From an uncultured bacterium (lineage in GTDB: Bacteria > Methylomirabilota > Methylomirabilia > Rokubacteriales > DASRDR01), in contig CAYQDR010000006.1 in assembly GCA_964416315.1 (NCBI GenBank), positions 6,540 to 70,539 of the forward strand: a stretch of DNA of 64,000 nt. The letters are read 5' to 3'. A program made the translations under genes and the position numbers. The notes beneath the pieces were generated by a model. That model was not told where the DNA came from and ran no database searches. It saw nothing but the letters and a program-made list of their open reading frames with translations. Shown here one piece after another: positions 1,832-51,602 of the stretch; the stretch's first letter is position 1, and each line of letters begins with the position of its first letter.

Positions 1832-3568
1832 GTGCGGGTCTGTCGGTATGATGACGTCGTGCGGAATGTCGAGCTCGCCGAGCTGTTCGACGAGATCGCC
1901 GACCTCCTGGAGATCCGGGAGGAGAACGTCTTCCGGGTCCGCGCCTACCGCCGCGCGGCCCAGCAGCTCGAGAGCCTCGCCGAGGACGCCGCCGAGGCCC
2001 TCGAGGCCGGCAAGAAGATCCCGGGGATCGGCGCCGACCTGGCCGCGAAGATCCGGGAGTTCGCGGACACGGGGGCCGTCGCCTACCTCGAGGAGCTGCG
2101 CAAGACGCTTCCTGCGGGCGTGCGGGACCTCATGGCGATCCAGGGCGTGGGGCCGAAGACGGCGAAGCTCCTCGCCGAGCAGCTCGGCATCGACTCGGTC
2201 GAGCGCCTCGAGGAGGCGTGCCGGTCGGGGGCGATCCTGGAGGTGCCGGGCATCCGCGCGAAGACCCGCGACAACATGCTCCGCGGGATCGAGGCGTGGA
2301 AGGCCGGACAGGCGCGGATGCCGCTCGGCAAGGCGCTCGCCCTGGCGGATGCCGTCGTCCGCGCGCTCCGCGAGACCCCCGGCGTCCAGGCGATCGAGCC
2401 GGCCGGCTCCCTCCGGCGGCGCCTCGAGACCGTCGGCGACATCGACATCCTGGTCACCTCGACCCGCCCGGCCGCCGTCATCGAGCGGTTCGTCGGCTTG
2501 CCGCAGGTCGTGACGGTGCTCGCGCACGGCGAGACCAAGTCCTCCATCCGTCACCGCGAGGGGATCCAGGTGGACCTCCGGGTCGTCGAGCCCGAGGCCT
2601 TCGGCGCGGCCCTCCAGTACTTCACGGGCTCGAAGAACCACAACGTGAAACTCCGGGAGCTCGCGGTCCGGAAAAAGCTCAAGATCAGCGAGTACGGGGT
2701 CTTCGACGCGCGCGGCCGCCGGGCCGGCGGCCGGACCGAGGAGGAGGTCTACGCGGCGGTCGGGCTGCCCTGGATCCCGCCGGAGCTCCGCGAGGACACG
2801 GGCGAGATCGAGGCCGCGCTCGCCCGCAAGCTCCCGACGCTGGTCGAGGTGGAGCACATCCGCGGCGACCTCCACGCCCACACCGACTGGTCCGACGGCC
2901 ACCATCCCCTCGAGGCCCTCGTCACGGCCGCCGAGGCCCGGGGGTACGAGTACATCATCGTCTCCGACCACTCGCGCTCGGCCACGGTGGCCCGAGGCCT
3001 GACGCCGGACCAGCTCCGCGACCAGATCCGGAAGATCCGCGTCCTCCAGCGGAAGCACCGGGTCCGGATCCTCGCGGGCTCCGAGTGCGACATCCTGGCG
3101 GACGGGACGATGGACTTCCCGGACGACGTCCTCGCCGAGCTGGACGTGGTGCTCGCGGCCGTCCACTCGCGTTTCAAGCAGCCCCGCCCGGAAATGACCG
3201 CACGAATCTGCCGGGCGCTCGAGAACCCGCACGTCCGCATCCTGGCGCACCCGACGGGGCGGCTCCTCGGCTCCCGCGAGCCCTACGACGTGGACCTCGA
3301 GCAGGTGTTCGCGGCCGCGAAGCGCCACGGCAAGGCGATCGAGATCAACGGCTCGCCCTGGCGTCTCGATCTGAACGACGTCCACGCGCGCCGGGCGCGG
3401 GACCTCGGCCTCCTGGTCACCATCGACACGGACGCGCACTACCTCGACGAGCTCGAGAACATGGCGCTGGGCGTGGCGACGGCGCGGCGTGCCTGGATCG
3501 GCCCCGAGCGCGTCGTCAACGCCCTGCCGCTCGACCGGCTCCTCGGGTGGGCGCGGGCCGGGCGCTAG
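1832..3568 (+). CDS. polX: DNA polymerase X family protein with C-terminal PHP (histidinol-phosphatase-like) domain
   Basis: ELAELFDEIADLLE... helix-hairpin-helix regions, DIDILV, C-terminal HAHTDWSDG / VSDH PHP motifs; exact start (GTG 1832 vs 1858) uncertain. Confidence 0.85.
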   Translation: MRVCRYDDVVRNVELAELFDEIADLLEIREENVFRVRAYRRAAQQLESLAEDAAEALEAGKKIPGIGADLAAKIREFADTGAVAYLEELRKTLPAGVRDLMAIQGVGPKTAKLLAEQLGIDSVERLEEACRSGAILEVPGIRAKTRDNMLRGIEAWKAGQARMPLGKALALADAVVRALRETPGVQAIEPAGSLRRRLETVGDIDILVTSTRPAAVIERFVGLPQVVTVLAHGETKSSIRHREGIQVDLRVVEPEAFGAALQYFTGSKNHNVKLRELAVRKKLKISEYGVFDARGRRAGGRTEEEVYAAVGLPWIPPELREDTGEIEAALARKLPTLVEVEHIRGDLHAHTDWSDGHHPLEALVTAAEARGYEYIIVSDHSRSATVARGLTPDQLRDQIRKIRVLQRKHRVRILAGSECDILADGTMDFPDDVLAELDVVLAAVHSRFKQPRPEMTARICRALENPHVRILAHPTGRLLGSREPYDVDLEQVFAAAKRHGKAIEINGSPWRLDLNDVHARRARDLGLLVTIDTDAHYLDELENMALGVATARRAWIGPERVVNALPLDRLLGWARAGR

Positions 3569-3569
3569 G

Positions 3570-3613
3570 TCCTCGGAGGGGGCCTCGACGGCCCCCTCCG
3601 AACCCTCCCCCCG
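3570..3613. repeat. REP-like palindromic element family A, copy 1 (GGAGGGGGCC-TCGAC-GGCCCCCTCC hairpin), also serves as post-polX hairpin
   Basis: near-identical to 27037-27080 (opposite orientation) and variant at 25176-25218. Confidence 0.6.
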
Positions 3614-3814
3614 GAATACGTTGCGGCGGCGAAGCCGCCGCTCGGAGCGGACCACCATGGGCGCGTGGACGAGCGTCGCTTTGCGCCCGGTCAGTCCGAC
3701 TGCCACCCCGAGGCCGGCGACGGACATGACGGATGCGGGATGAAGGCCACGCGAGCGCCGGCGAACGAGGCCGGCGCATTTTGTCGTCCAGCCGGCGGGG
3801 TGTAGCATGAACGC

Positions 3815-40963: not shown

Positions 40964-41515
40964 GAATCAGTCCTTTCCCGACGGCCGGTTACGGCCAGCC
41001 GCCCGAAACATGCAGGCAGGGTACCAGACCCGAGGGGCTCTGTCACGCCGCGCGAGAGGGGGACCGTCCGGCGCAGACCCAGCCGGTCGAGTGCGCTATC
41101 TCGTGCCGGTCACCTCCCGCGTTGGGTTGCGCGAGCGTCCCTGGCGGGCACCACGAAGCCCCGAACGCCGTGGGGAAAGGCTGGGGAAAAAGCGGGCTCT
41201 CCGGAAATCGTGTGGGTTCGACGAGCTGGACTGGCCGACGCTCCACTCGCTGCAGCCCCCGGAGGCCCGAAGGAGGCCGGCGCGGTCCGCTCAGGGCCCC
41301 CGGCCGCATTTTTCGCTTGACAGGATTTTGCATGGGGGGTGTGACCGCGGTCGCGGTGTCGACTGCCAGGCCCGGCCAGCGGCGCGCCTCGGTCCGGTGC
41401 GCCGTGCGTGGCCCGCGCCGACCCGAAAACGATTCCCGCCCTCCCGATCTCCCGTCCTGGGGCCTCCCCGGGCGCCCGAGACTCGCATGGTAGAGTCCGC
41501 GCAAGGAGGTCGCGC

Positions 41516-42874
41516 ATGCACCAGACCACGACTCCCCCGCCATCCCCCGCCCCGGCGGACCTCGACCGGCTCGGCGACGAGATCGCCGCGCTCGCGGCCC
41601 ACCTCGACGCCGCCACCGCGCGGCTGCTGACCCTGCTCCGCGAGTTTGACGCCCGGGGCGGCTGGGCCCAACAGGGCTGCCGCTCCTGCGCCGAGTGGCT
41701 CAGCTGGCGGGCCGGGCTCGACCCCGGGGCGGCGCGGGAGCGGGTGCGGGTGGCCCGGGCGCTGGGCGCCCTGCCGGAGCTCGCCGGGGCCCTGGCCCGG
41801 GGGGAGCTGTCCTACTCGAAGGTCCGCGCCCTGACGCGGGTGGCCACCCCGGAGACGGAAGCGCGCCTCCTGGCCGTGGGGCGGGCGGCGACGGCGGCGC
41901 ACGTGGAGCGCATCGTGCGGGCGTGGCGGCGGGTGGACCGGCTGGCGGAGGCGCAAGAGGCCCAGGCGCGCCACGCGCGGCGGTCGCTCCAGGTGTATCC
42001 AGACGCAGACGGGATGGTGGTCGTGCGGGGACGGCTGGAGCCCGAGGTCGGGGCACTGCTCGTGCGCGCGCTCGAGGCGGGGCGCGAGGCCCTGTACCAG
42101 CAGCGGCGAGCCACGGCGGTACCGGACCAGCCCGAGGCGGACCCGCCGACCCCCGGCCAGCAGCAGGCCGACGCCCTCGCGCTGGTGGCGCAGACGGCGC
42201 TTCAGCACGGCCTCGACCCCGGCCCGGGGTGCGAGCGGTACCAGGTGGTCGTCCACGTAGACGCCGCGGCGCTGGCCGACCCGGCCCAGCCGGGCCCGGC
42301 CGCGCTCGAGGACGGCGTCGGCGTTTCCCCGGAAACGGTCCGCCGCCTGGCCTGTGACGCGACCCGGGTCGTCCTGCGCCACGCGGGAGACGGGGAGGTC
42401 CTCGACGTCGGGCGGCGGACGCGGGCGATCCCGCCGGCGCTCCGCCGGGCCCTCCAGGCCCGGGACCGAGGGTGCCGCTTCCCGGGCTGTGGGGTCCGCC
42501 ACGCGCAGGGCCACCACATCCATCACTGGGCCAACGGCGGCCCGACCCGGCTCGAGAACCTCGCACTCCTCTGCCGGCGCCATCACCGGGCGGTCCACGA
42601 GGAGGGCTACCAGGTCGAACGCGGCGCTGACGGCACCCTCCGCTTCAGCCGGCCGGACGGGCGGCCGATTCCCGAGGTGCCGCGGGCGCCGGCGGTGCCG
42701 CGCGACCCGACCGGCGCGCTGGTCGCGGCCCATCGGGCGCACGGCCTGGTGATCGACGCGCGGACGGGGTGCCCGAGCTGGCTCGGCGAGCGCCTCGACC
42801 TGGACTGGGCGATCGGGGTCCTGCATCCCGCCGCCCAAGCGATCGCGTTCCGACCCGCCGGCCGCTCGCCCTGA
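41516..42874 (+). CDS. HNH endonuclease, DUF222 (13E12-repeat) family
   Basis: DUF222 N-terminal region and C-terminal HNH motif CRFPGCGVRHAQGHHIHHWANGGPTRLENLALLCRRHHRAVH; TAGAGT -10 and GGAGG SD upstream. Confidence 0.8.
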   Translation: MHQTTTPPPSPAPADLDRLGDEIAALAAHLDAATARLLTLLREFDARGGWAQQGCRSCAEWLSWRAGLDPGAARERVRVARALGALPELAGALARGELSYSKVRALTRVATPETEARLLAVGRAATAAHVERIVRAWRRVDRLAEAQEAQARHARRSLQVYPDADGMVVVRGRLEPEVGALLVRALEAGREALYQQRRATAVPDQPEADPPTPGQQQADALALVAQTALQHGLDPGPGCERYQVVVHVDAAALADPAQPGPAALEDGVGVSPETVRRLACDATRVVLRHAGDGEVLDVGRRTRAIPPALRRALQARDRGCRFPGCGVRHAQGHHIHHWANGGPTRLENLALLCRRHHRAVHEEGYQVERGADGTLRFSRPDGRPIPEVPRAPAVPRDPTGALVAAHRAHGLVIDARTGCPSWLGERLDLDWAIGVLHPAAQAIAFRPAGRSP

Positions 42875-43028
42875 GCACCCCGTCTCGGGGACCGCGTCGA
42901 GGGGTTCTCCCCGGCGATGGCCCCTGCCCTGGATGGCGCGTCAGCCGAACGCTTGTCCGGGAGCGCTCGAGGTTCCACCCAGCTCCGACCCTCGCCTCGG
43001 CGGGTCGGAGCAGAACTCGAGTTGCTGC

Positions 43029-43328
43029 TTATCCCACACGATTCCCAGAAGGGCGAAAAAGCGAGGAGACCGATCCACTCCCAGCATCAGGCCCCCTCTG
43101 ATCATAGATCGTTCCAGACCTCATGTTCCAGAAGTCCAGCGAGGGCTCGGAGAGGTTGCGCCGTCCCCGGCCCCCCAGGATGAACCCCTCCAGCTCGTCC
43201 TCATGGAGCCGCGCCACGACCGCGAACGGCTTCCCGCGCTTGGTCAACACGACCCGCTCGCCCCGCCCGACGGCCTCCAGAACCTCGCCGGTCCGGTTCC
43301 TCAGCTCGCGGACCCCGACGAACTTCAT
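43029..43328 (-). CDS. Phd/YefM-family antitoxin-like protein, apparently orphan (no toxin ORF downstream)
   Basis: MKFVGVRELRNRTGEVLEAVGRGERVVLTKRGKPFAVVARLHEDELEGF N-terminus typical of Phd/YefM. Confidence 0.55.
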   Translation of the reverse strand: MKFVGVRELRNRTGEVLEAVGRGERVVLTKRGKPFAVVARLHEDELEGFILGGRGRRNLSEPSLDFWNMRSGTIYDQRGPDAGSGSVSSLFRPSGNRVG

Positions 43329-43336
43329 CGCGTGCC

Positions 43337-43370
43337 CCCCATGTGGCTCCGATTGTATGCGCACATGGGG
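43337..43370 (-). promoter_or_regulatory. inverted repeat CCCCATGTG-N16-CACATGGGG enclosing a TACAAT -10 box upstream of the Phd-like gene (candidate autoregulatory operator/promoter)
   Basis: read directly. Confidence 0.4.
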
Positions 43371-43629
43371 CGCGCAGCCAGCTCCCGGCGGCCCGTCGGA
43401 GCCCGGCTGCCACCGGTCAGCCCGGCGTTCGGGAACCAGAGCCCCTCCACGACGCGATGACGAGTGCCCCTTCACTGCCCTCGTGCGTCTCCTTGCTCGG
43501 CCTAGGCCCCGGTCGGGGTCACGGGGAGACAGACTTCCGGAGGTCGCCGGAAGGGACCGGTGGCTGACCAACGCGGATTGCACTAAGTTGACCACGGCTT
43601 CCCGCGATTCGGGTAGAATTCTCGACAAG

Positions 43630-46629
43630 ATGAGCCACCTCCACCAGGTTCTCGCGGGTAAGGTGGACCAGTGGCGCAAGGGCGGTTACGCGTCCGACTA
43701 CCCCGCCATCGCGGAGATTTTCGAGTGGGCGAGTGACCCGGAGACGGGCGAGCTCAGATTCCTCAGGAGGCCACAGCTCAAGGCCCTGGAGACCTACTGG
43801 TACCTGAGACTCGTCGAGGGCACGCCGCACGTCTTTTCGCTCTACCAGAGGCTCTTTCCAAGCCCCCCGGAACTGCTCGACGCCCTGGGGCTCGGCACCG
43901 CGCAGATCCATCGGCTTGTGGCCGGCCAGCCGCTCGATTCCCTGTGGAAACGCATCAAGACCGACGACCGGTTCGTGCGGGACTTCAGGTTGGAGAGCGT
44001 CCGTGAGACGCTGACGCTGGACTACCCAAGCTACATCCTGGCCCTTGCCATGGGTGCAGGGAAGACCATCCTCATCGGGGCGATCTATGCGGCCGAGTTC
44101 GCGATGGCGCTGGAGTACCCGGACGGGCCCTTCGTCCAGAACGCCCTCGTGTTCGCTCCGGGCAAGACGATCATCGAGTCCCTGCGAGAGTTGGCTGCGA
44201 TCCCCTACGACCGGATCCTGCCTCCACGCCTTTACAAGCCGTTCGCGGCGTCCGTCAAGCTGACCTTTACCCGTGACGGGGAGAAGGACATTCCGGTAGT
44301 CCGGGGCAGCTTGTTCAACGTCGTGGTGACCAACACCGAGAAGATCCGAATCCAGAAGGAGACGATACGGCGGCGCGATCTGGGGGGGCTGCTGGGCGCC
44401 GGCCGCGAGGACGAGGCGCGGGCCGAGGTGGCGAACCTTCGCCTTCAGGCCATCGCGTCGTTGCCACACCTGGCCGTGTTCTCCGACGAGGCGCACCACA
44501 CCTACGGCCAGTCGCTAGAGACCGAGCTGAAGAAGGTCCGGAAGACCGTGGACTACCTGGCGGCCAACACGAAGGTCATCTGCGTCGTCAACACCACGGG
44601 CACGCCCTACTACCGCCGCCAGCCGCTGAAGGACGTCGTGATCTGGTACGGGCTCTCCGAGGGGATCCGGGACAACATCCTCAAGGACGTCTCCGGCAAC
44701 ATCCACGCCTTCGAGTTCGAGGGAAAGACCGACGCCTACGTGAGCCACGTCATCGAGGACTTCTTCCGGGACTACGGTGACGTCCGGCTCCCGAATGGTG
44801 CCCCGGGAAAGCTGGCGATCTATTTCCCGCAGACCGACGACCTGGAAGAGCTGCGTCCGGCCATCGACGCGGCGCTGGTGAGGGTCGGCCAGGCTCCCAC
44901 CGTCTCTCTGCGAAACACCACGGACTCCCCGAAGGAAGAGGTCGAGGCGTTCAACCGCCTGAACGATCCGGCGGTGCCGCACCGCGTGATCCTCCTCGTG
45001 AACAAGGGCACCGAGGGCTGGAACTGCCCGAGCCTCTTCGCGTGCGCGCTGGCCCGGCGACTCCGGAGCAGTAACAACTTCGTCCTCCAGGCCGCGACGC
45101 GATGTCTCCGCCAGGTTCCGGGCAACAAGATGAAGGCCCGCATCTACCTGTCCCGGGAGAACCGTGCGATCCTCGACCGCCAGCTCCAGGAGACGTACGG
45201 GGAAACGATTGCGGATCTCGACCGTACGACCCGGGAGATCGGGTCTGCTCGGCTGGTCCTCCGCAAGCTCGCCCCCCCGCCCATCCGGCTCACGCGTTCG
45301 GTTCGGTCGGTCGTTCCCGCTGCTGCAGGCGCGAGAATGCTGCGCCTGGAGCGACCCGGGACCGATGCGGCCGCGACGGCTCTCACCAAGGCAGTGTTCG
45401 ACATCGCTGCCAGGTCCGGCGTCAGGCGCCTGCTCCAGCAGGTCGGCGAGACGATCCAGATCGACACCGCGCCGGAGATCGTGGATCGCCATGAGGCCGC
45501 CGTCAGTCTGGCCGCGGCATTCCGCCTCGACGTGTGGGCCGTGTATGACGAGCTGGGGAGGCTGTACGCGGCGGCCGACGGAATCCCTGCCGCTCACCTC
45601 GAGGAGCTGGCACGCCAGCTGGCGGAGCAGACCCGACACTACGAGGTCCGCGAGGAGAGCGCCGAGTGGGTGCTGGCCCTCGTCAAACCCCACGGCTTCG
45701 TCAGAGCCACCGACGCCGAGGGACGCGAGGTTTACGCCGCGGACATCACCTATCCGAAAGACCGGGAACGGCTAATGCTCCACGCCAGGACGATCCGGGA
45801 GAACCCGGCCCGCTTCGGGTTCCACTACGACCCGTACAACTTCGACTCCGGGCTGGAGCTGGACTTCTTCCAGCAGGTGCTCGCGGAGCTGAACATCCGC
45901 CCGGCCGAGGTGGAGGACATCTATTTCACCGGCGGTCTCACCGACCCCGCCAAGACCGACCTGTTCGTGGAGTACCTGGGCGAGGACGGGCGCTCGCACC
46001 GCTACACCCCGGACTTCGTGATCCGCAAGCGCCCTCGCCAGGGCGGTCCGCCCGGATCAGGGCGCGTGCTGGTCGTGGAACTGAAGGACGATCGGTTCGA
46101 GGCTCAGACCTGCGAGGACGAGGGCCGGTTCGAGCGAGGGGAGCCGCCGTTGACCAACGAGGGCCGGAAGGCGATTGCCCTGAGAGGGCTCGAGCGCCTG
46201 AATCCCGACCGGCTGCGCTACGAGCTGATCTTTGCGAAGAGCGGGGTAACCTACGACCAGCTGGACGAGGTGCGGCGGTTCGTCCGAGAGCCCGAGGGCA
46301 TCTACGCGCACGACCTGGACGTCGCCCGAAAGCTCAAGGACTTGGTCCTTCGGGTTGACGGGAAGCGCATCCGGAAGATCATCCTGTTCGGCTCCCGGGC
46401 CCGCGGTGACGCGCGCCCCGACAGTGACTATGACCTGCTCGTCGTATTGCGCGACATCCCGCCGGACGAAAAGCGATCGTATCGACTGGCTCTCTACGAC
46501 GCGCTTCAGGGCACAGGCGCGGAGCCCTGGGTCATGGGCGAAGAGGAGTTCGAGGAGACCAAGAGCGTCATCGGTGGCCTGGCTCACCCAGCCTGGACCG
46601 AAGGGGTGCTTCTCTACGAGGACTCCTGA
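43630..46629 (+). CDS. Type III restriction Res-like protein: SF2 DEAH helicase + PD-(D/E)xK nuclease with C-terminal minimal nucleotidyltransferase (MNT) domain
   Basis: motif I LALAMGAGKT, motif II FSDEAHH, motif III TGTP, nuclease YTPDFVI...VLVVELKDD, MNT ILFGSRARGDARPDSDYDLLVV. Confidence 0.8.
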   Translation: MSHLHQVLAGKVDQWRKGGYASDYPAIAEIFEWASDPETGELRFLRRPQLKALETYWYLRLVEGTPHVFSLYQRLFPSPPELLDALGLGTAQIHRLVAGQPLDSLWKRIKTDDRFVRDFRLESVRETLTLDYPSYILALAMGAGKTILIGAIYAAEFAMALEYPDGPFVQNALVFAPGKTIIESLRELAAIPYDRILPPRLYKPFAASVKLTFTRDGEKDIPVVRGSLFNVVVTNTEKIRIQKETIRRRDLGGLLGAGREDEARAEVANLRLQAIASLPHLAVFSDEAHHTYGQSLETELKKVRKTVDYLAANTKVICVVNTTGTPYYRRQPLKDVVIWYGLSEGIRDNILKDVSGNIHAFEFEGKTDAYVSHVIEDFFRDYGDVRLPNGAPGKLAIYFPQTDDLEELRPAIDAALVRVGQAPTVSLRNTTDSPKEEVEAFNRLNDPAVPHRVILLVNKGTEGWNCPSLFACALARRLRSSNNFVLQAATRCLRQVPGNKMKARIYLSRENRAILDRQLQETYGETIADLDRTTREIGSARLVLRKLAPPPIRLTRSVRSVVPAAAGARMLRLERPGTDAAATALTKAVFDIAARSGVRRLLQQVGETIQIDTAPEIVDRHEAAVSLAAAFRLDVWAVYDELGRLYAAADGIPAAHLEELARQLAEQTRHYEVREESAEWVLALVKPHGFVRATDAEGREVYAADITYPKDRERLMLHARTIRENPARFGFHYDPYNFDSGLELDFFQQVLAELNIRPAEVEDIYFTGGLTDPAKTDLFVEYLGEDGRSHRYTPDFVIRKRPRQGGPPGSGRVLVVELKDDRFEAQTCEDEGRFERGEPPLTNEGRKAIALRGLERLNPDRLRYELIFAKSGVTYDQLDEVRRFVREPEGIYAHDLDVARKLKDLVLRVDGKRIRKIILFGSRARGDARPDSDYDLLVVLRDIPPDEKRSYRLALYDALQGTGAEPWVMGEEEFEETKSVIGGLAHPAWTEGVLLYEDS

Positions 46630-46639
46630 GCAGGTCCGA

Positions 46640-47044
46640 TGGGACTGGGTCAAGCTGTGGCTCGCCAAGGCGCGAGAGGATCTGTTTGCAGGCGAGGTGA
46701 TCCTCAACGCATCCATGCCCTCATATGATCTGGTCGGTTTTCATGCCCAGCAGGCGGCGGAGAAAGCATTGAAGGCGCTTCTCATCAGACACCAGGTGAA
46801 GTTCGGAAAGACTCACAATATGACAGAGCTCCTTCAACTCGCCGAGCCGATCGCTCCGGGCATCCGTCAGCAGTTGACCGATGCCACGGCACTCACCCCC
46901 TTCGCCGTGGATGTCCGATATCCCGGCGAGCCGCCCTTGGGCCAGGGCGAGGCGGCCCGCCACCTCGCGGCCGCCCGAAAAGCGCTGGACCATACTGGCG
47001 TGCTCCTGAAACCGTACCTCGACGCGGGCCGGCCCGGCGGGTAG
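46640..47044 (+). CDS. HEPN-domain protein (start unresolved: nearest ATG 46639 is 1 nt out of frame; alternative in-frame GTG 46574)
   Basis: WDWVKLWLAKAREDLFAGEVIL...FHAQQAAEKALKALL...VRYPGEP HEPN-like helices; partner of MNT domain. Confidence 0.55.
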   Translation, partial: WDWVKLWLAKAREDLFAGEVILNASMPSYDLVGFHAQQAAEKALKALLIRHQVKFGKTHNMTELLQLAEPIAPGIRQQLTDATALTPFAVDVRYPGEPPLGQGEAARHLAAARKALDHTGVLLKPYLDAGRPGG

Positions 47045-47058
47045 GATGAGGGTCGAGG

Positions 47059-48999
47059 ATGGCCAAGAGCCGCACTAAGAAAGCGCTGCCGAAGCGGCAG
47101 AAGCCTGTCGCTCGGAAACCGGCACTCACGCCGAGCTTCGCGAAAAAGCAGGAGGTCGCCATCACGGCGGCCAAGGGCCGGCCGATGCTCACGTGGGTCG
47201 GCAAGCGGCCTCTGCGAAATGTCGTCGCCTTCCCCGCCCAGCATGTCGAGACCTACGACCCCTCCGGCGACGCCGCCAAGCGTGGTGGCGACGTTTGGAA
47301 GGACTGGCCGGAAGCCTACCCGCGGGGCGGGCTCCTCTTCCACGGCGACAACAAGGAGGTGCTGGCGCATCTCCTGGCGAACGGCTTCCGAGGCAAGGTC
47401 AACCTGATCTATATCGACCCACCCTTCGACTCCGGTGCCGACTACGTGCGGAAAGTGAGCCTGCGCGGACCGAGGGGGACTGCCAAGCTCGACGGCGAAG
47501 GTTACACGCTCGGGGAACAGCTCCAGTACACCGACATCTGGGCCAACGACAACTACCTCCAGTTCATGTACGAGCGGCTTCTGCTACTGAAAGAGCTCCT
47601 GGCTGATGGTGGCTCCATTTTCCTCCACTGTGACAGTACTAAGGGCCATCATCTCCGCTGTCTAATGGACGAAGTCTTTGGAGCCGAAAAGTTCCTCAAT
47701 GAGATCGTTTGGAGCTATCGGCGGTGGCCGGCGGACACCGACTCATTTCAGTCGATGCACGACACAATTCTCTACTACGTCGTGGAAATCTCCAAGAAGC
47801 GTACCTTCCATCGCATGTATGAAGAAGCATCCGAAAGCTATCTCAGGCGATTCGGCGGCAAGACTCAGAAGCTCGACGAAGAGACCGGGACGCGAAAGAT
47901 CACCCTCGATCAGGAAACGAAAGGCATGCCTTTGCGCGACGTATGGGAGATATCCATAGTCGCCGGCTTCAAAGGGGAGCGGACCCAGTACCCAACCCAA
48001 AAGCCAGAGGAACTTGCCGCAAGAATCATAGAGGCCTGCTCTAACCCTGGGGATGTCGTTCTAGACTCTTTCGTCGGGTCTGGTACCACTGCGGCGGCTG
48101 CGCAGAGGCTAGGGCGCCGCTGGATTGCTTGCGACATCAACAAAGGCGCGATCCAGACCACGAGCAAGCGCCTCCAGACGATCATCGAGGAGCAGATCAA
48201 GCACGCGGCGAAAGGCCGGCAGGGTGCGTTAGCCGACGTCCCGGAGGGAAAAGAAGAGCAGGTCGAGTCCGCGCAACTTACTTTCTCAGTCTACCGGGTC
48301 AACGACTACGACCTGGCGATCCAGCACCAGGAGGCCGTCAACCTCGCCTGCGAGCACATCGGCGTGACGCGGATGCGGACCGACCGCTACTTCGATGGAA
48401 CCCTCGGCAAGAAGCTCGTCAAGGTTGTCCCGTTCTCGCACCCGCTGACGCTGCTGGACCTCGAGGAGCTCAAGCGCGAGCTGGACGCGCGGCCGGGCGA
48501 AGAGCGCGACGTCGTGCTCGTGTGCCTCGGCAAGGAGCCCGCCGCCGACGCCTGGATCGAGGACTGGGACCGCTTCCGAAGAGGCAAGACCGCGGTGAAC
48601 CGGATCGAGGTCATCGAGCTCCGGACAGATCCGAAATATGGCAAGTTCTTCCAGCACCAGCCGGCCAGAGCCAGGGTCAAGGCGGTCCGAAAGAACGACA
48701 CGCTAATGGTCCACATCGAGGACTTCATCTCGCCGAGCATCATTGAGCGTCTCCACAAGCAGGCCGGACTCCTCAAGCCGAAGATCGACGACTGGCGGGC
48801 GATGGTGGACTGCGTGATGCTCGACCTCGACTACGACGGCAAGGTCTTCCGGATCGGCCTCTCCGACGTGCCGGAACGGAAGACCGACCTGGTCGCCGGT
48901 CGCTACGAGATCCCGGCGGTCCGGAACGGCGCGACCGTGGCGGTCAAGATCATCGACATGCTCGGGGAGGAAGTCCTCGTTACCCTTCCCGCGAGTTGA
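47059..48999 (+). CDS. site-specific DNA methyltransferase, beta-class N6A/N4C (Type III Mod-like) with ~250-aa C-terminal extension
   Basis: motif IV IYIDPPFDSG before motif I FVGSGTT; ATG with SD-like GAGGGTCGAGG. Confidence 0.85.
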   Translation: MAKSRTKKALPKRQKPVARKPALTPSFAKKQEVAITAAKGRPMLTWVGKRPLRNVVAFPAQHVETYDPSGDAAKRGGDVWKDWPEAYPRGGLLFHGDNKEVLAHLLANGFRGKVNLIYIDPPFDSGADYVRKVSLRGPRGTAKLDGEGYTLGEQLQYTDIWANDNYLQFMYERLLLLKELLADGGSIFLHCDSTKGHHLRCLMDEVFGAEKFLNEIVWSYRRWPADTDSFQSMHDTILYYVVEISKKRTFHRMYEEASESYLRRFGGKTQKLDEETGTRKITLDQETKGMPLRDVWEISIVAGFKGERTQYPTQKPEELAARIIEACSNPGDVVLDSFVGSGTTAAAAQRLGRRWIACDINKGAIQTTSKRLQTIIEEQIKHAAKGRQGALADVPEGKEEQVESAQLTFSVYRVNDYDLAIQHQEAVNLACEHIGVTRMRTDRYFDGTLGKKLVKVVPFSHPLTLLDLEELKRELDARPGEERDVVLVCLGKEPAADAWIEDWDRFRRGKTAVNRIEVIELRTDPKYGKFFQHQPARARVKAVRKNDTLMVHIEDFISPSIIERLHKQAGLLKPKIDDWRAMVDCVMLDLDYDGKVFRIGLSDVPERKTDLVAGRYEIPAVRNGATVAVKIIDMLGEEVLVTLPAS

Positions 49000-49031
49000 G
49001 CCCGCCCTCGCGGCGGATCGGGCGGCGCCAA

Positions 49032-49307
49032 CTACAAGTCGCCCTTGAGCCAGGCCCGGTAGGCGTCGAACCACTCTGCGCCGACCGGCGGCCGATCCGC
49101 CCATTCGAGGGCGGTGACGCCGACCCGGTAAGTCCGTCCCTTGCGCCGGCAGATGGCCCTGAACGGGCAGGCGACGCGATCCTCAAGCATCACCAGGAAT
49201 GCGCCGTGCTGCCGGTCCGCTCCATAAGCGTCGACGAGGACCTCCCCGATCAGTTGACGGAGGCGGGCTCTGCCCGTCCTGCCTTTCCGGCTCAACTCAG
49301 CGGACAC
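49032..49307 (-). CDS. hypothetical protein (91 aa)
   Basis: ORF overlapping end of upstream 538-aa gene by 16 nt; no family recognised. Confidence 0.45.
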   Translation of the reverse strand: MSAELSRKGRTGRARLRQLIGEVLVDAYGADRQHGAFLVMLEDRVACPFRAICRRKGRTYRVGVTALEWADRPPVGAEWFDAYRAWLKGDL

Positions 49308-50908
49308 CCTTCCGCCTCGAGCTTCCTCCAGATGAGCCGCTTCCTCCCGTGGCGCTGCCGGAGGTGCCGCAGGAGATCCGCCCAGAACCGTGGCTCACCG
49401 ACCAGCCGGGACAGCTCGGCGACGATGGCGCAGTAGTGGGCGGCCGGCGCCGCGCGTGACGGCCTGCCGGAGTCGAGATGCAGATCCACGAGTCGCTGGT
49501 ACATGGCGGCGGCGAGGCGCGCGTACTCGGCGCGGCTAGCGGTCCCGGGTCGCTCGAGGATGAGGCGAAGCCAGTCGTACGGTTCCTCCCGGTCGCGTCC
49601 CAGCCGGCGTTGAAGCTCCCTAAGCTTCGGGAACGCGGTGAGGTCCGCTCCGTCCGAGGCTTTGGCAACGGCGTACTTGGCCACGAGTTTCAGCTCGTCG
49701 AAGCCCATCCGACCCTGCCGGCCGGCGATCCCGTCGAAGACCTCGCGCTCCCGGCCCTCGGCCAGGAGAATGCGTGTCTTGAGCCCCGTCACGTGCCACG
49801 CCCCTTCTCCGGGCCGAGTCGCCGTCCGCAGCAGCCGCGCCAATACCGCGTCCCAGTTGGAGAGGGCCTCCGACTGCCGCCTCAGCGCCGCGAAGGCTGC
49901 GGCGTCGGGCTCCCTGAGAAACTGTGCGACCCGGGCCTCCTGGGCCGCCGACCGGTCCCCGAGGGCCTCCCGGGCCCGGATGAGGGCCGTGGCGAACTTC
50001 CCGTGGTGGCCGAACGTCCTGACCCCCACCTCAGCCAGCCTGGCCACCCCGGCCCAGTCCATCTTCCGCTCGTACTGGGAGAGCACCTCCTCCAGGTACA
50101 CGGCGTTCCGGGGCGCGAAGCGCTCCTTTAGGGCCAGGACCTCGGCCCGGTTGCGTCCGACCGTGGCCAGGGCGATGAGGCCGTCCACCTCGGTGGGACA
50201 GTCCGGCCGATCGGTCCTCAGGGCGCCCTCCGCTGCTGCGGTCAGCCGCATCTTGAGCCGCTCGCGGCCGTCCGCGTCCAAAGCCCTGGCCAATCCGGTG
50301 AAGCCCCCCCGGTATCCGAACTTCTTCGCGAGCGGCAGGATCTCGGTAATGACCCCCTCCACACCTCCGCGGCACGCCACCAGGCTCCGGGTGTAGCCCT
50401 CGACCACCCGGGCGAAGTCCAGGGCGATGGCGTCCTCCGGGGCTCCGTGATTGCCGAGAATGTCCGTCGTCTCCCCGGCCTCGGCCAGAAGCCCCAGTAG
50501 CAGGGCATAGGCTCTGACCGCTGCTGCGTGTTGCCCTGATCGGGTGAGCTCCAGCGCCCGGCTCATGAAGTCGGTGAAGAGCTCGACCCACTCTCCGAAC
50601 GCCTCCGACTCGTCCCCCTCGTCGCCCGGGTCAGACCACTCATCCTCAGGGATCCAGGAGACGAAGGCGCCCGAACGGGATTGCGCGCAAAAGTCTTCGA
50701 TTTCCTCGAGGAGCGCCCCCGGCCGGGAGCGTGAAGTCGAGCCCTTCGACCCGCGCGGCAGGTGCTCGCGGACCCACCGCGTCTGTCGGTGGGACGGCAG
50801 ATTGGCGATCTGCTCGGCCAGCAGCTCGGCGAGCTTCGCTTCGCCGAGGCGCGCCAGGTCGGCCTTCCGAACCGCCGCTCGACCGGGGCCGACCCTCCTT
50901 CGTGGCAT
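49292..50908 (-). CDS. hypothetical alpha-helical protein (538 aa), unknown function
   Basis: GAGAGGG SD before ATG 50908; GC3-rich; acidic stretch WSDPGDEGDESE; no family recognised. Confidence 0.55.
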   Translation of the reverse strand: MPRRRVGPGRAAVRKADLARLGEAKLAELLAEQIANLPSHRQTRWVREHLPRGSKGSTSRSRPGALLEEIEDFCAQSRSGAFVSWIPEDEWSDPGDEGDESEAFGEWVELFTDFMSRALELTRSGQHAAAVRAYALLLGLLAEAGETTDILGNHGAPEDAIALDFARVVEGYTRSLVACRGGVEGVITEILPLAKKFGYRGGFTGLARALDADGRERLKMRLTAAAEGALRTDRPDCPTEVDGLIALATVGRNRAEVLALKERFAPRNAVYLEEVLSQYERKMDWAGVARLAEVGVRTFGHHGKFATALIRAREALGDRSAAQEARVAQFLREPDAAAFAALRRQSEALSNWDAVLARLLRTATRPGEGAWHVTGLKTRILLAEGREREVFDGIAGRQGRMGFDELKLVAKYAVAKASDGADLTAFPKLRELQRRLGRDREEPYDWLRLILERPGTASRAEYARLAAAMYQRLVDLHLDSGRPSRAAPAAHYCAIVAELSRLVGEPRFWADLLRHLRQRHGRKRLIWRKLEAEGCPLS

Positions 50909-50922
50909 CCCGGCCCTCTCGC

Positions 50923-51602
<680 letters not shown>

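Follow-up and report, generated by a model that had tools for sequence, protein, structure and literature searches.

We examined a 64,000-nucleotide (nt) stretch of the forward strand of contig CAYQDR010000006.1 (positions 6,540 to 70,539; NCBI GenBank assembly GCA_964416315.1), which comes from an uncultured bacterium of the Rokubacteriales (Methylomirabilota). We refer to this whole stretch as the window. The G+C content of the window is 71 to 79%, and it drops to 58 to 66% across positions ~43000 to 49000, where three close-packed genes on the plus strand form a cassette (Table 1): a gene for a restriction subunit (Res) that is fused to a minimal nucleotidyltransferase (MNT) domain, an open reading frame (ORF) for a HEPN protein, and a gene for a DNA methyltransferase (Mod). 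The HEPN ORF overlaps res and is in the +1 frame relative to it, and both the HEPN and the mod genes come within 14 nt of the gene before. This arrangement is genuine, conserved, and previously uncurated, and it combines two known kinds of system: restriction-modification (R-M) and toxin-antitoxin (TA). The 23 kb surrounding res are base-for-base the same in two more public assemblies, so we reject an assembly error. Scans for promoters and terminators gave results no better than chance level.

Table 1. Features of the res-MNT/HEPN/mod cassette and of its left flank, in window coordinates
Feature	Position	Strand	Remarks
res-MNT fusion gene	43630..46629	+	999 amino acids (aa); superfamily 2 (SF2) helicase/translocase ~aa 1-560, middle region, PD-(D/E)xK ~aa 730-870, MNT aa 886-999
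HEPN gene, PF05168 type	46616..47044	+	142 codons + TAG; 14-nt overlap with res; ancestral ATG is ACG here
mod	47059..48999	+	beta-class N6/N4 DNA methyltransferase; begins 14 nt past HEPN
Walker A / helicase motif I, AMGAGKT (aa 140-146)	44047..44067	+	M141, G142, G144, K145, T146 invariant, n = 55
Helicase motif II, SDEAHH (aa 285-290)	44482..44499	+	invariant, n = 55
PD-(D/E)xK core, YTPDF (aa 792-796) to VELK (aa 816-819)	46003..46086	+	Y792, P794, D795, F796, E817, K819 invariant
MNT domain, antitoxin-type, ~114 aa (aa 886-999)	46285..46626	+	Pfam; joins Res C-terminus without linker
MNT catalytic motif GSRARGDARPDSDYD (G921, S922 ... D933-x-D935)	46390..46434	+	GSx10DxD intact
GTG	46574..46576	+	only canonical in-frame start near HEPN domain; used by two gene callers; not conserved
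Shine-Dalgarno-like GAAGGGG	46600..46606	+	9 nt upstream of codon 46616; also codes Glu-Gly of MNT C-terminus
Variable stretch, 7.6 kb	43357..50990		~0.8 kb in relative L179 instead, holding only res, MNT, and HEPN relics
phd/yefM-type antitoxin gene	43029..43328	-	orphan; 99 aa instead of 78; neighbor, outside cassette
Inverted repeat, possible operator	43334..43373		12-nt arms (43334-43345 / 43362-43373), 16-nt spacer, 92% complementary; just upstream of phd start

The C-terminus of Res is a nucleotidyltransferase. The Pfam models NTP_transf_2 and Polbeta match aa 910-997 with E = 3e-9, which exceeds their curated cut-offs, and the active site of type VII antitoxins, GSx(9-13)DxD, is present: F920, G921, S922, R925, D931, D933, and D935 are invariant across 29 fused homologues. 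In the predicted structure, the C-terminal ~100 aa match the MntA antitoxin structures 7bxo, 8xeo, and 7ae9. The match to NCBIfam's MntA_antitoxin is weak, at 32.6 bits with a cut-off of 60. The MNT domain shares 54% of 107 aligned aa with a free-standing MNT of 110 aa, which terminates in GGLAYPAHKYGVVLYENA and a stop codon. Unfused relatives of Res (~880 aa) stop at ~aa 885, where the MNT domain begins; thus, both Res and MNT are complete in the fusion, and no linker separates them. The initial annotation of the window, which was made from the sequence and without database searches, had proposed this covalent fusion, and the Pfam matches, the invariant catalytic motif, and the recurrence described below all bear it out. 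The profile searches that it suggested found NTP_transf_2, HEPN, and N6_N4_Mtase, with ResIII just short of its cut-off. It had also considered that this C-terminal region might be routine in Type III enzymes that have no adjacent HEPN gene; instead, in all fused loci with readable downstream sequence, a HEPN or HepT gene adjoins res-MNT. Our literature searches found no description of a restriction subunit (Res) fused to an MNT antitoxin.

The rest of Res has the architecture of a Type III restriction subunit, with an SF2 helicase-like ATPase and then a PD-(D/E)xK nuclease, and these motifs sit where they had been placed before. Across 55 sequences, helicase motifs I, II, III, V, and VI and the PD...ExK residues are all invariant, as is TGTP at aa 323-326, and the start of Res agrees with the homologue consensus MxHLHQVLA. 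For the N-terminal part of the predicted structure, the fold-search matches are SF2 helicases and translocases, including HsdR. The model of full-length Res is mediocre, with a predicted local distance difference test score (pLDDT) of 69, so we left its domain contacts uninterpreted. By sequence, Res does not belong to a curated Type III Res family. Pfam's ResIII reaches 20.5 bits, just below the cut-off of 22.5 bits; no Type III Res model in PADLOC matched; and NCBIfam gives the BPTD_3080 family at only 42 bits, as compared to a cut-off of 800. Aligning Res to the Res of EcoP1I (phage P1) with hhalign gave a probability of 4% and covered helicase motifs V-VI only, and sequence and profile searches of the PDB found nothing for the Res core. 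Some relatives have a precomputed Pfam match to Tn7_TnsA-like_N, and in NCBI annotation, relatives appear as "DEAD/DEAH box helicase family protein" or as "TnsA endonuclease N-terminal domain-containing protein." Relatives of Res are encoded in at least 523 species-representative genomes. Judging by sequence, Res is best named a distinct, uncurated Type III-like family: it is Type III-like by its architecture, not by membership in curated sequence families.

The methyltransferase is easier to place. Mod matches Pfam's N6_N4_Mtase (E = 5e-50), its best PADLOC model is MTase_III (E = 4e-57), and DPPF comes ahead of FVGSGTT. Homologous Mods align as two blocks that flank a nonaligning stretch at ~aa 220-300, so that the central target-recognition region varies among loci. 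The beta-class order, with motif IV ahead of motif I, and the central target-recognition region are both features of Type III Mods. In Type III systems, cleavage is ATP-dependent and needs two unmethylated sites in inverse orientation, and Mod hemimethylates the DNA. Hence the identification of a beta-class Mod-like methyltransferase after the HEPN gene holds, and the architecture of Res together with the MTase_III match bears out the description of the locus as Type III-like.

The HEPN gene between res and mod is also as proposed (Pfam HEPN, E = 8.6e-21). In the AlphaFold model (pLDDT 94.5), helix 1 runs from residue 4, so the residues encoded just past the res stop belong to the HEPN fold. 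The protein is a stand-alone single domain of 142 aa; the fusion to an N-terminal ABC ATPase that is found in PrrC and RloC is absent. Its nearest solved sequence is TT1696 (1ufb; E = 1.5e-6), and its best structural matches are ST0689, 4nqf, and the HEPN domain of sacsin, which are classical HEPN proteins, with the HepT toxins lower down the list. W15, H67, R101, Y102, and P103 are invariant and are common to the free-standing toxins. In all 22 of the class A junctions that we examined (the class is defined below), the HEPN ORF is intact.

We classified 148 nonredundant loci of the Res family, in a sample that is enriched for the window's nearest relatives. Res-MNT is accompanied by a PF05168 HEPN in 21 loci, including the window (class A), and 22 loci combine Res fused to a different MNT, MntA, with a HepT/DUF86 gene (class B). 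The HepT proteins of class B (PF01934; Pfam HepT-like, E = 1e-23 to 1e-27) contain the RX4HXY motif, as RNRIVHEY. A free MNT+HepT pair lies between res and mod in ~6 loci, other cargo is found there in ~25, and res is directly followed by mod in 62; the rest were unscorable because the contig stops before mod. Among the best 120 database clusters, ~70 are ~1000 aa long with an MNT, and the next group is ~880 aa long and ~65% identical. The same three genes occur in unrelated neighborhoods in Methylomirabilia, Rokubacteria, Acidobacteria, and other assemblies, and many of the bacteria with this arrangement are from soil and groundwater. In a rough neighbor-joining tree of the Res core, whose deep branches are untrustworthy, the fusions are spread over at least four clades. 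We found no fused relatives on plasmids, and the viral contigs yielded only three relatives, all unfused.

The order res-HEPN-mod had been considered unusual. However, wherever a Mod was found, res precedes mod, and a range of cargo occupies the gap between the two; therefore, res-HEPN-mod is one filling of this general slot and not an anomaly of gene order. The cargo includes Fic/DOC, a helix-turn-helix protein with an ImmA/IrrE peptidase, ORF6N, NYN, a YhcG/DUF1016 nuclease, DUF5131, DUF6978 with DUF1828, and MNT with HepT. This hotspot was seen in loci L006, L009, L024, L034, L037, L044, L062, L084, L100, and others. Two loci look like decayed cassettes: in L017 (8984-9685), the HEPN ORF extends to 234 aa and no Mod follows, and in L086 (8991-9469), only the last ~60 aa of Mod come after Res-MNT. 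In the fused locus L004 (13553-17389), a 1015-aa SNF2-family helicase that overlaps Mod by 1 nt and then an S-adenosylmethionine-dependent methyltransferase may be extra components. On the Ideonella dechloratans plasmid NZ_CP088082 (L182, 4265-12402), an unfused Res (50% identical) is preceded by a Phd/YefM and RelE/ParE pair and is followed by Mod, an AAA ATPase with DUF4276, and Mrr, which is a defense island with another TA system beside the same R-M family.

The origin of the module can be traced through its free-standing relatives. Outside R-M loci, the closest relatives of the HEPN protein (~50% identity) lie in TA-rich islands, downstream of the free 110-aa MNT. These free pairs of MNT (110 aa) and HEPN (149 aa) share the window's 14-nt overlap (L174, L176, and L178), and an antitoxin-first bicistron with overlapping genes is also the layout of type VII systems. 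Some loci have a free MNT and HepT directly after res; there, the res stop and the predicted start of MNT overlap, and a minimal change is thus enough to fuse the two genes. These sequence comparisons indicate that the window's Res-MNT and HEPN descend from an overlapping MNT-HEPN module. A two-gene TA module of the type VII kind entered the slot between res and mod; the res stop codon was lost next, which turned the whole antitoxin into the C-terminal domain of Res; and the toxin gene has retained its ancestral 14-nt overlap with the 3' end of the antitoxin.

A relic of a cassette is found in L179, a contig of a Candidatus Rokubacteria assembly. Its flanks are ~96% identical to those of the window, which makes an origin of the window in that lineage very likely. 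The relic (reverse complement, ~2960-3744) consists of the 5' end of res, an MNT ORF (107 aa, TTG start), and ~10 HEPN codons: the Res core, the HEPN toxin, and Mod are gone, and the MNT ORF was kept. The MNT of the relic is 76% identical to the window's, as compared to ~96% for the flanks, so a different allele of the cassette decayed at the same site. The pattern of the relic fits the logic of a TA system.

How HEPN translation begins is less obvious. As the initial annotation pointed out, the gene has no canonical in-frame start at the expected position, and the ATG at 46639 is out of frame. In free-standing HEPN genes, the start ATG lies 13 nt ahead of the last base of the MNT stop codon, and the gene begins with ATG AGA ACG CCT GAG CAG, encoding MRTPEQ(V/A)KWDFV (overall, MRTPEQV(K/R)WDFV). 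At 46616, the window reads ACG AGG ACT CCT GAG CAG GTC CGA TGG GAC TGG GTC, or (T)RTPEQVRWDWV. In the MNT frame, the ATG is formed by a tyrosine codon, TAT, and the G after it; the window has TAC. Across class A, the codon at -13 is ATG in clade A2 and in L014, ACG in 11 loci, and ATC in 3; in L012 and L013, the junction is spaced differently and the -13 position is unalignable (in L012, a TTG overlaps the res stop). Relative to res, HEPN lies in the +1 frame in 20 of the 22 loci examined. In ~20 of the 22 class B loci, a canonical start (ATG or TTG) persists even where G+C is 64-70%, so base composition by itself leaves the loss of the ATG unexplained. Complementarity to the anti-Shine-Dalgarno sequence 9 nt ahead of the -13 codon is the strongest among the candidate starts in nearly all loci of clade A1, to which the window belongs, irrespective of which codon stands at -13; the duplex with GAAGGGG has a free energy of -8.6 kcal/mol here, with a range of -6.4 to -9.5 across the clade. 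In our reading, the codon at 46616 is the homologous HEPN start, which is now near-cognate, and initiation there may be helped by coupling to res termination. In E. coli, near-cognate codons initiate at ~0.1-2% of AUG, and ACG at roughly 0.1-1% (bioRxiv 10.1101/063800).

Two other starts had been suggested and did not hold up. First, the GTG at 46574 is present in only 8 of 22 loci, its frame is closed upstream in several relatives, and its Shine-Dalgarno sequence is weak; we judge it unlikely to be the true start. Second, a one-base shift after the ATG at 46639 would give the N-terminus M-WDWVKL, which was thought to be typical, but homologues start with MRTPEQV, and the comparison of junctions rules the shift out. 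This ATG is just CGA-TGG (Arg-Trp), since the tryptophan of RWDWV is conserved.

Both halves of the cassette have well-studied counterparts. Like the Type III R-M systems EcoP1I and EcoP15I, the cassette has genes for a Res of ~880-1000 aa, with SF2 helicase motifs and then a C-terminal PD-(D/E)xK nuclease, and for a beta-class Mod with a central variable recognition region and MTase_III as its best PADLOC model. Unlike those two-gene systems, res precedes mod, Res has an extra MNT domain, a third gene lies between, and, as described above, Res is below the ResIII cut-off, lacks a PADLOC match, and aligns to EcoP1I over motifs V-VI only. The resemblance to the type VII HepT/MntA systems (Shewanella SO_3166/3165 and Aphanizomenon HEPN/MNT) lies in the MNT coming first, the GSx10DxD site, the overlap of HEPN with the 3' end of MNT, and the match of the MNT fold to MntA crystal structures; class B even carries a true HepT with RX4HXY. 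In type VII systems, the nucleotidyltransferase antitoxin neutralizes the HEPN toxin by AMPylation (PMC7641770, PMC13000451). Unlike in those systems, the antitoxin here is the C-terminal domain of a 999-aa restriction subunit, and the window's HEPN is of the classical PF05168 type, lacks Rx4-6H, and has ACG as its start codon.

Couplings between immunity and toxins have been described before. HEPN genes in R-M operons, fusions of HEPN to nucleases or helicases, and clustering of PF05168 HEPN genes with R-M genes are all known (PMC3710099), and Makarova et al. (2013) noted that immunity loci seem to encode no antitoxins (PMC3632139). In PrrC-EcoprrI, too, a HEPN gene lies in an R-M operon, and the proposal is that the R-M proteins restrain the RNase as long as restriction has not been overcome (PMC3710099); however, PrrC is an ABC-ATPase-HEPN fusion that a Type I enzyme masks, and it has no enzymatic antitoxin, whereas here the antitoxin enzyme is covalently part of Res. 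In the CRISPR-Cas-associated CreTA (Li et al., 2021, cited in PMC13000451), neutralization of the toxin likewise depends on an immune component whose loss is penalized, but that system is RNA-based. In the single-chain MNT-HEPN protein FhepTA, the MNT is also covalently tethered, which fixes the stoichiometry, and HEPN is regulated by oligoAMPylation and control of dimerization (PMC13000451); there, toxin and antitoxin are fused to each other, whereas here the antitoxin is on a third protein and the toxin is separate. A solved chain in PDB entry 9z7q bears the name "Cmr1-MntA," which denotes the fusion of an MntA-like domain to a subunit of a type III CRISPR system. A literature search found no paper on Cmr1-MntA; judging from its name, the entry suggests the same trick in a CRISPR system.

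We consider it probable, albeit with substantial doubt, that the cassette is a Type III-like R-M operon with a TA module whose antitoxin enzyme resides in Res, so that the toxin is neutralized only via full-length Res-MNT. By analogy with type VII systems, Res-MNT would AMPylate HEPN and keep it inactive, and HEPN would be harmless only while full-length Res-MNT is made and supplied with ATP. Because the antitoxin is the last domain of Res, HEPN would be neutralized only if Res were translated to its end and then persisted. HEPN would be freed, and would arrest or kill the cell, if res were lost or truncated, if the cassette were lost, or if a phage anti-restriction factor inactivated or degraded Res. 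Two compatible consequences could follow. First, cells would be addicted to an intact res gene or cassette, which would be a protein-level safeguard with the logic of CreTA. Second, the disabling of Res would trigger a second-line abortive response, with the logic of PrrC-EcoprrI. Since the ATG of the toxin has become ACG or ATC in the window's clade, its translation is probably very weak, either from a near-cognate codon or coupled to res termination; weak translation would suit a toxin whose antitoxin is bound to a low-abundance Res.

Several observations weigh against this interpretation. Res reaches no curated Type III Res model, and its restriction activity is predicted. The best structural matches of HEPN are classical PF05168 proteins and not HepT toxins. 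The RX4HXY motif of type VII toxins, which combines the canonical Rx4-6H with an adjacent AMPylated tyrosine, is found in class B but not in the window's HEPN, which instead has RYPGEPP, with no histidine at +5, and an invariant histidine at 67. The ratio of nonsynonymous to synonymous substitution rates (dN/dS) for HEPN, ~0.27, is similar to that of MNT and Res and speaks for maintenance of the ORF, but all these values are rough because dS is saturated. In L019 and L093, there is no ATG, GTG, or TTG in the open frame through codon 22, and with an ACG start, HEPN may be barely expressed. Selfish TA modules also insert beside R-M genes with no functional link. Finally, all of the data derive from metagenome assemblies. 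As to the motif, Anantharaman et al. noted that HEPN proteins of this family lack Rx4-6H and proposed an alternative histidine and a tyrosine as the target of nucleotidylation, and HEPN proteins without the motif still scored as toxins in a genome-wide screen (PMC3710099). By analogy with these proteins, toxicity of the HEPN in this locus is plausible.

The classical PF05168 type and the missing Rx4-6H would also suit a domesticated enzyme, in which MNT and a nontoxic HEPN form a two-part enzyme on Res, akin to kanamycin nucleotidyltransferase, with HEPN as the substrate-binding subunit. Such an enzyme would nucleotidylate Res, Mod, DNA ends, or a phage factor and would regulate restriction. 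HEPN was first proposed as a substrate-binding partner of MNT, fused MNT-HEPN enzymes are often RNase-dead (PMC3710099), and the loss of the ATG has been tolerated. Nevertheless, we think domestication improbable: the parallel class B fusions carry a bona fide HepT with RX4HXY, the closest free-standing relatives have the antitoxin-first, overlapping layout that is typical of TA systems and are found in TA-rich islands, and the invariant R101-Y102 and H67 fit an alternative active site and an AMPylation tyrosine (PMC3710099).

Alternatively, the module might be a hitchhiker: a selfish TA pair that landed in a permissive intergenic slot and was fused in frame by a neutral accident, with no tie to restriction. 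The slot does carry many unrelated cargo genes, TA pairs flank unfused relatives as well, and one base change at the overlap of the res stop and the MNT start suffices for fusion. An accident does not account well for fusions in several clades and with two different MNT/HEPN families, for their persistence, with ORFs intact and catalytic residues invariant, through divergence that has saturated substitutions, or for the frequency of fusion (43 of the 148 sampled loci, versus ~6 with an unfused MNT+HepT in the slot). We therefore view hitchhiking as a poor bet.

A programmed +1 ribosomal frameshift at the res stop (UCC UGA G) would yield a Res-MNT-HEPN polyprotein and would explain the missing start. 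The +1 frame is the common arrangement, as described above, and the last res codon is NCC, followed by UGA, in most loci, which resembles the known +1 shift sites of antizyme and RF2. L019 and L093 lack canonical starts, and single-chain MNT-HEPN proteins do exist (PMC13000451). However, neither the comparison of junctions nor RNA structure lends the frameshift specific support, and we consider it very unlikely. GCC and CGG cannot pair again after a +1 shift; the res-HEPN junction has no notable RNA structure that could be stimulatory (z = -0.9); and the 120 best homologues include no triple-fusion ORF. Since clades and free-standing modules with a normal ATG share the codons and the frame of the junction, these are inherited, not specialized. 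Lastly, a frameshift in assembly or sequencing at 46635-46645, as the initial annotation suspected, or a dead toxin pseudogene would explain the absence of a canonical start at the expected place and the disagreement of gene callers (which give HEPN lengths of 110-157 aa), but it is scarcely credible given that the three assemblies agree to the base, that 20 of 22 loci share the frame relation, that the conserved tryptophan makes the ATG at 46639 part of CGA-TGG, and that the ORF is intact and retains the invariant residues.

To return to the antitoxin enzyme within Res, a fuller version is possible but doubtful when all of its parts are taken jointly: a built-in safeguard and alarm, with gating by dimerization and with a toxin that starts from ACG or ATC or by a +1 shift. 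Only ribosomes that complete the 3-kb res message would yield antitoxin, and truncation, loss, or phage-driven destruction of Res would unleash HEPN. HEPN monomers would be tethered to separate Res-Mod complexes, and the RNase would dimerize when two of these meet on unmodified DNA.

Next to the cassette lies a phd/yefM-type gene (Pfam PhdYeFM, E = 2e-8; TIGR01552, E = 5e-10; both for the N-terminal domain). It has no toxin partner and has its own inverted repeat just upstream, as had been noted: no toxin ORF follows it, there is no room for one downstream, and L179, L180, and L181 have no recognizable toxin either. It had been counted as part of the R-M locus, but it belongs to the native flank, as it is shared with L179, is absent beside other cassettes, and is frameshifted. 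All of its homologues have 78 aa; the window's copy lacks 10 bp that L179 has (at ~43123, near the 3' end) and so reads to 99 aa, which suggests a decaying orphan antitoxin. Homology with the cassette-free L179 stops at 43357, between the arms of the inverted repeat. Directly to the left of phd is a gene for a DUF222 and HNH endonuclease protein (41408-42874), whose conservation in L179 marks it as part of the native flank. Similarly, a perfect 10-bp hairpin with a 10-nt loop downstream of phd (42982-43011) is identical in L179, so it is native and not the boundary of an island. On the other side of the cassette, a minus-strand ORF of 538 aa (49292-50908) overlaps a 91-aa ORF (49032-49307). 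Neither has a match in Pfam, NCBIfam, PADLOC, or the PDB (the 91-aa ORF has only a subthreshold CcbP-like hit), and because both are inside the 7.6-kb stretch that is missing from L179, they may be further island cargo.

Restriction genes are easily lost from R-M systems, and here an antitoxin is physically part of the restriction subunit, in an arrangement that has arisen repeatedly and with two MNT/HEPN families. The coupling of immunity to dormancy or suicide has been argued so far mostly from gene neighborhoods; these loci offer a simple genetic system for asking whether a toxin polices the retention and integrity of the restriction gene or fires when restriction is disabled. The Res family and its cargo slot are missed by current defense-finder models. 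The loci also supply a natural set of toxin genes that selection has maintained despite the absence of a canonical start codon. If the safeguard-and-alarm reading is true, the toxin of the window's clade would join the few bacterial genes whose translation routinely begins at ACG or ATC, or would be reached from res by a +1 shift.

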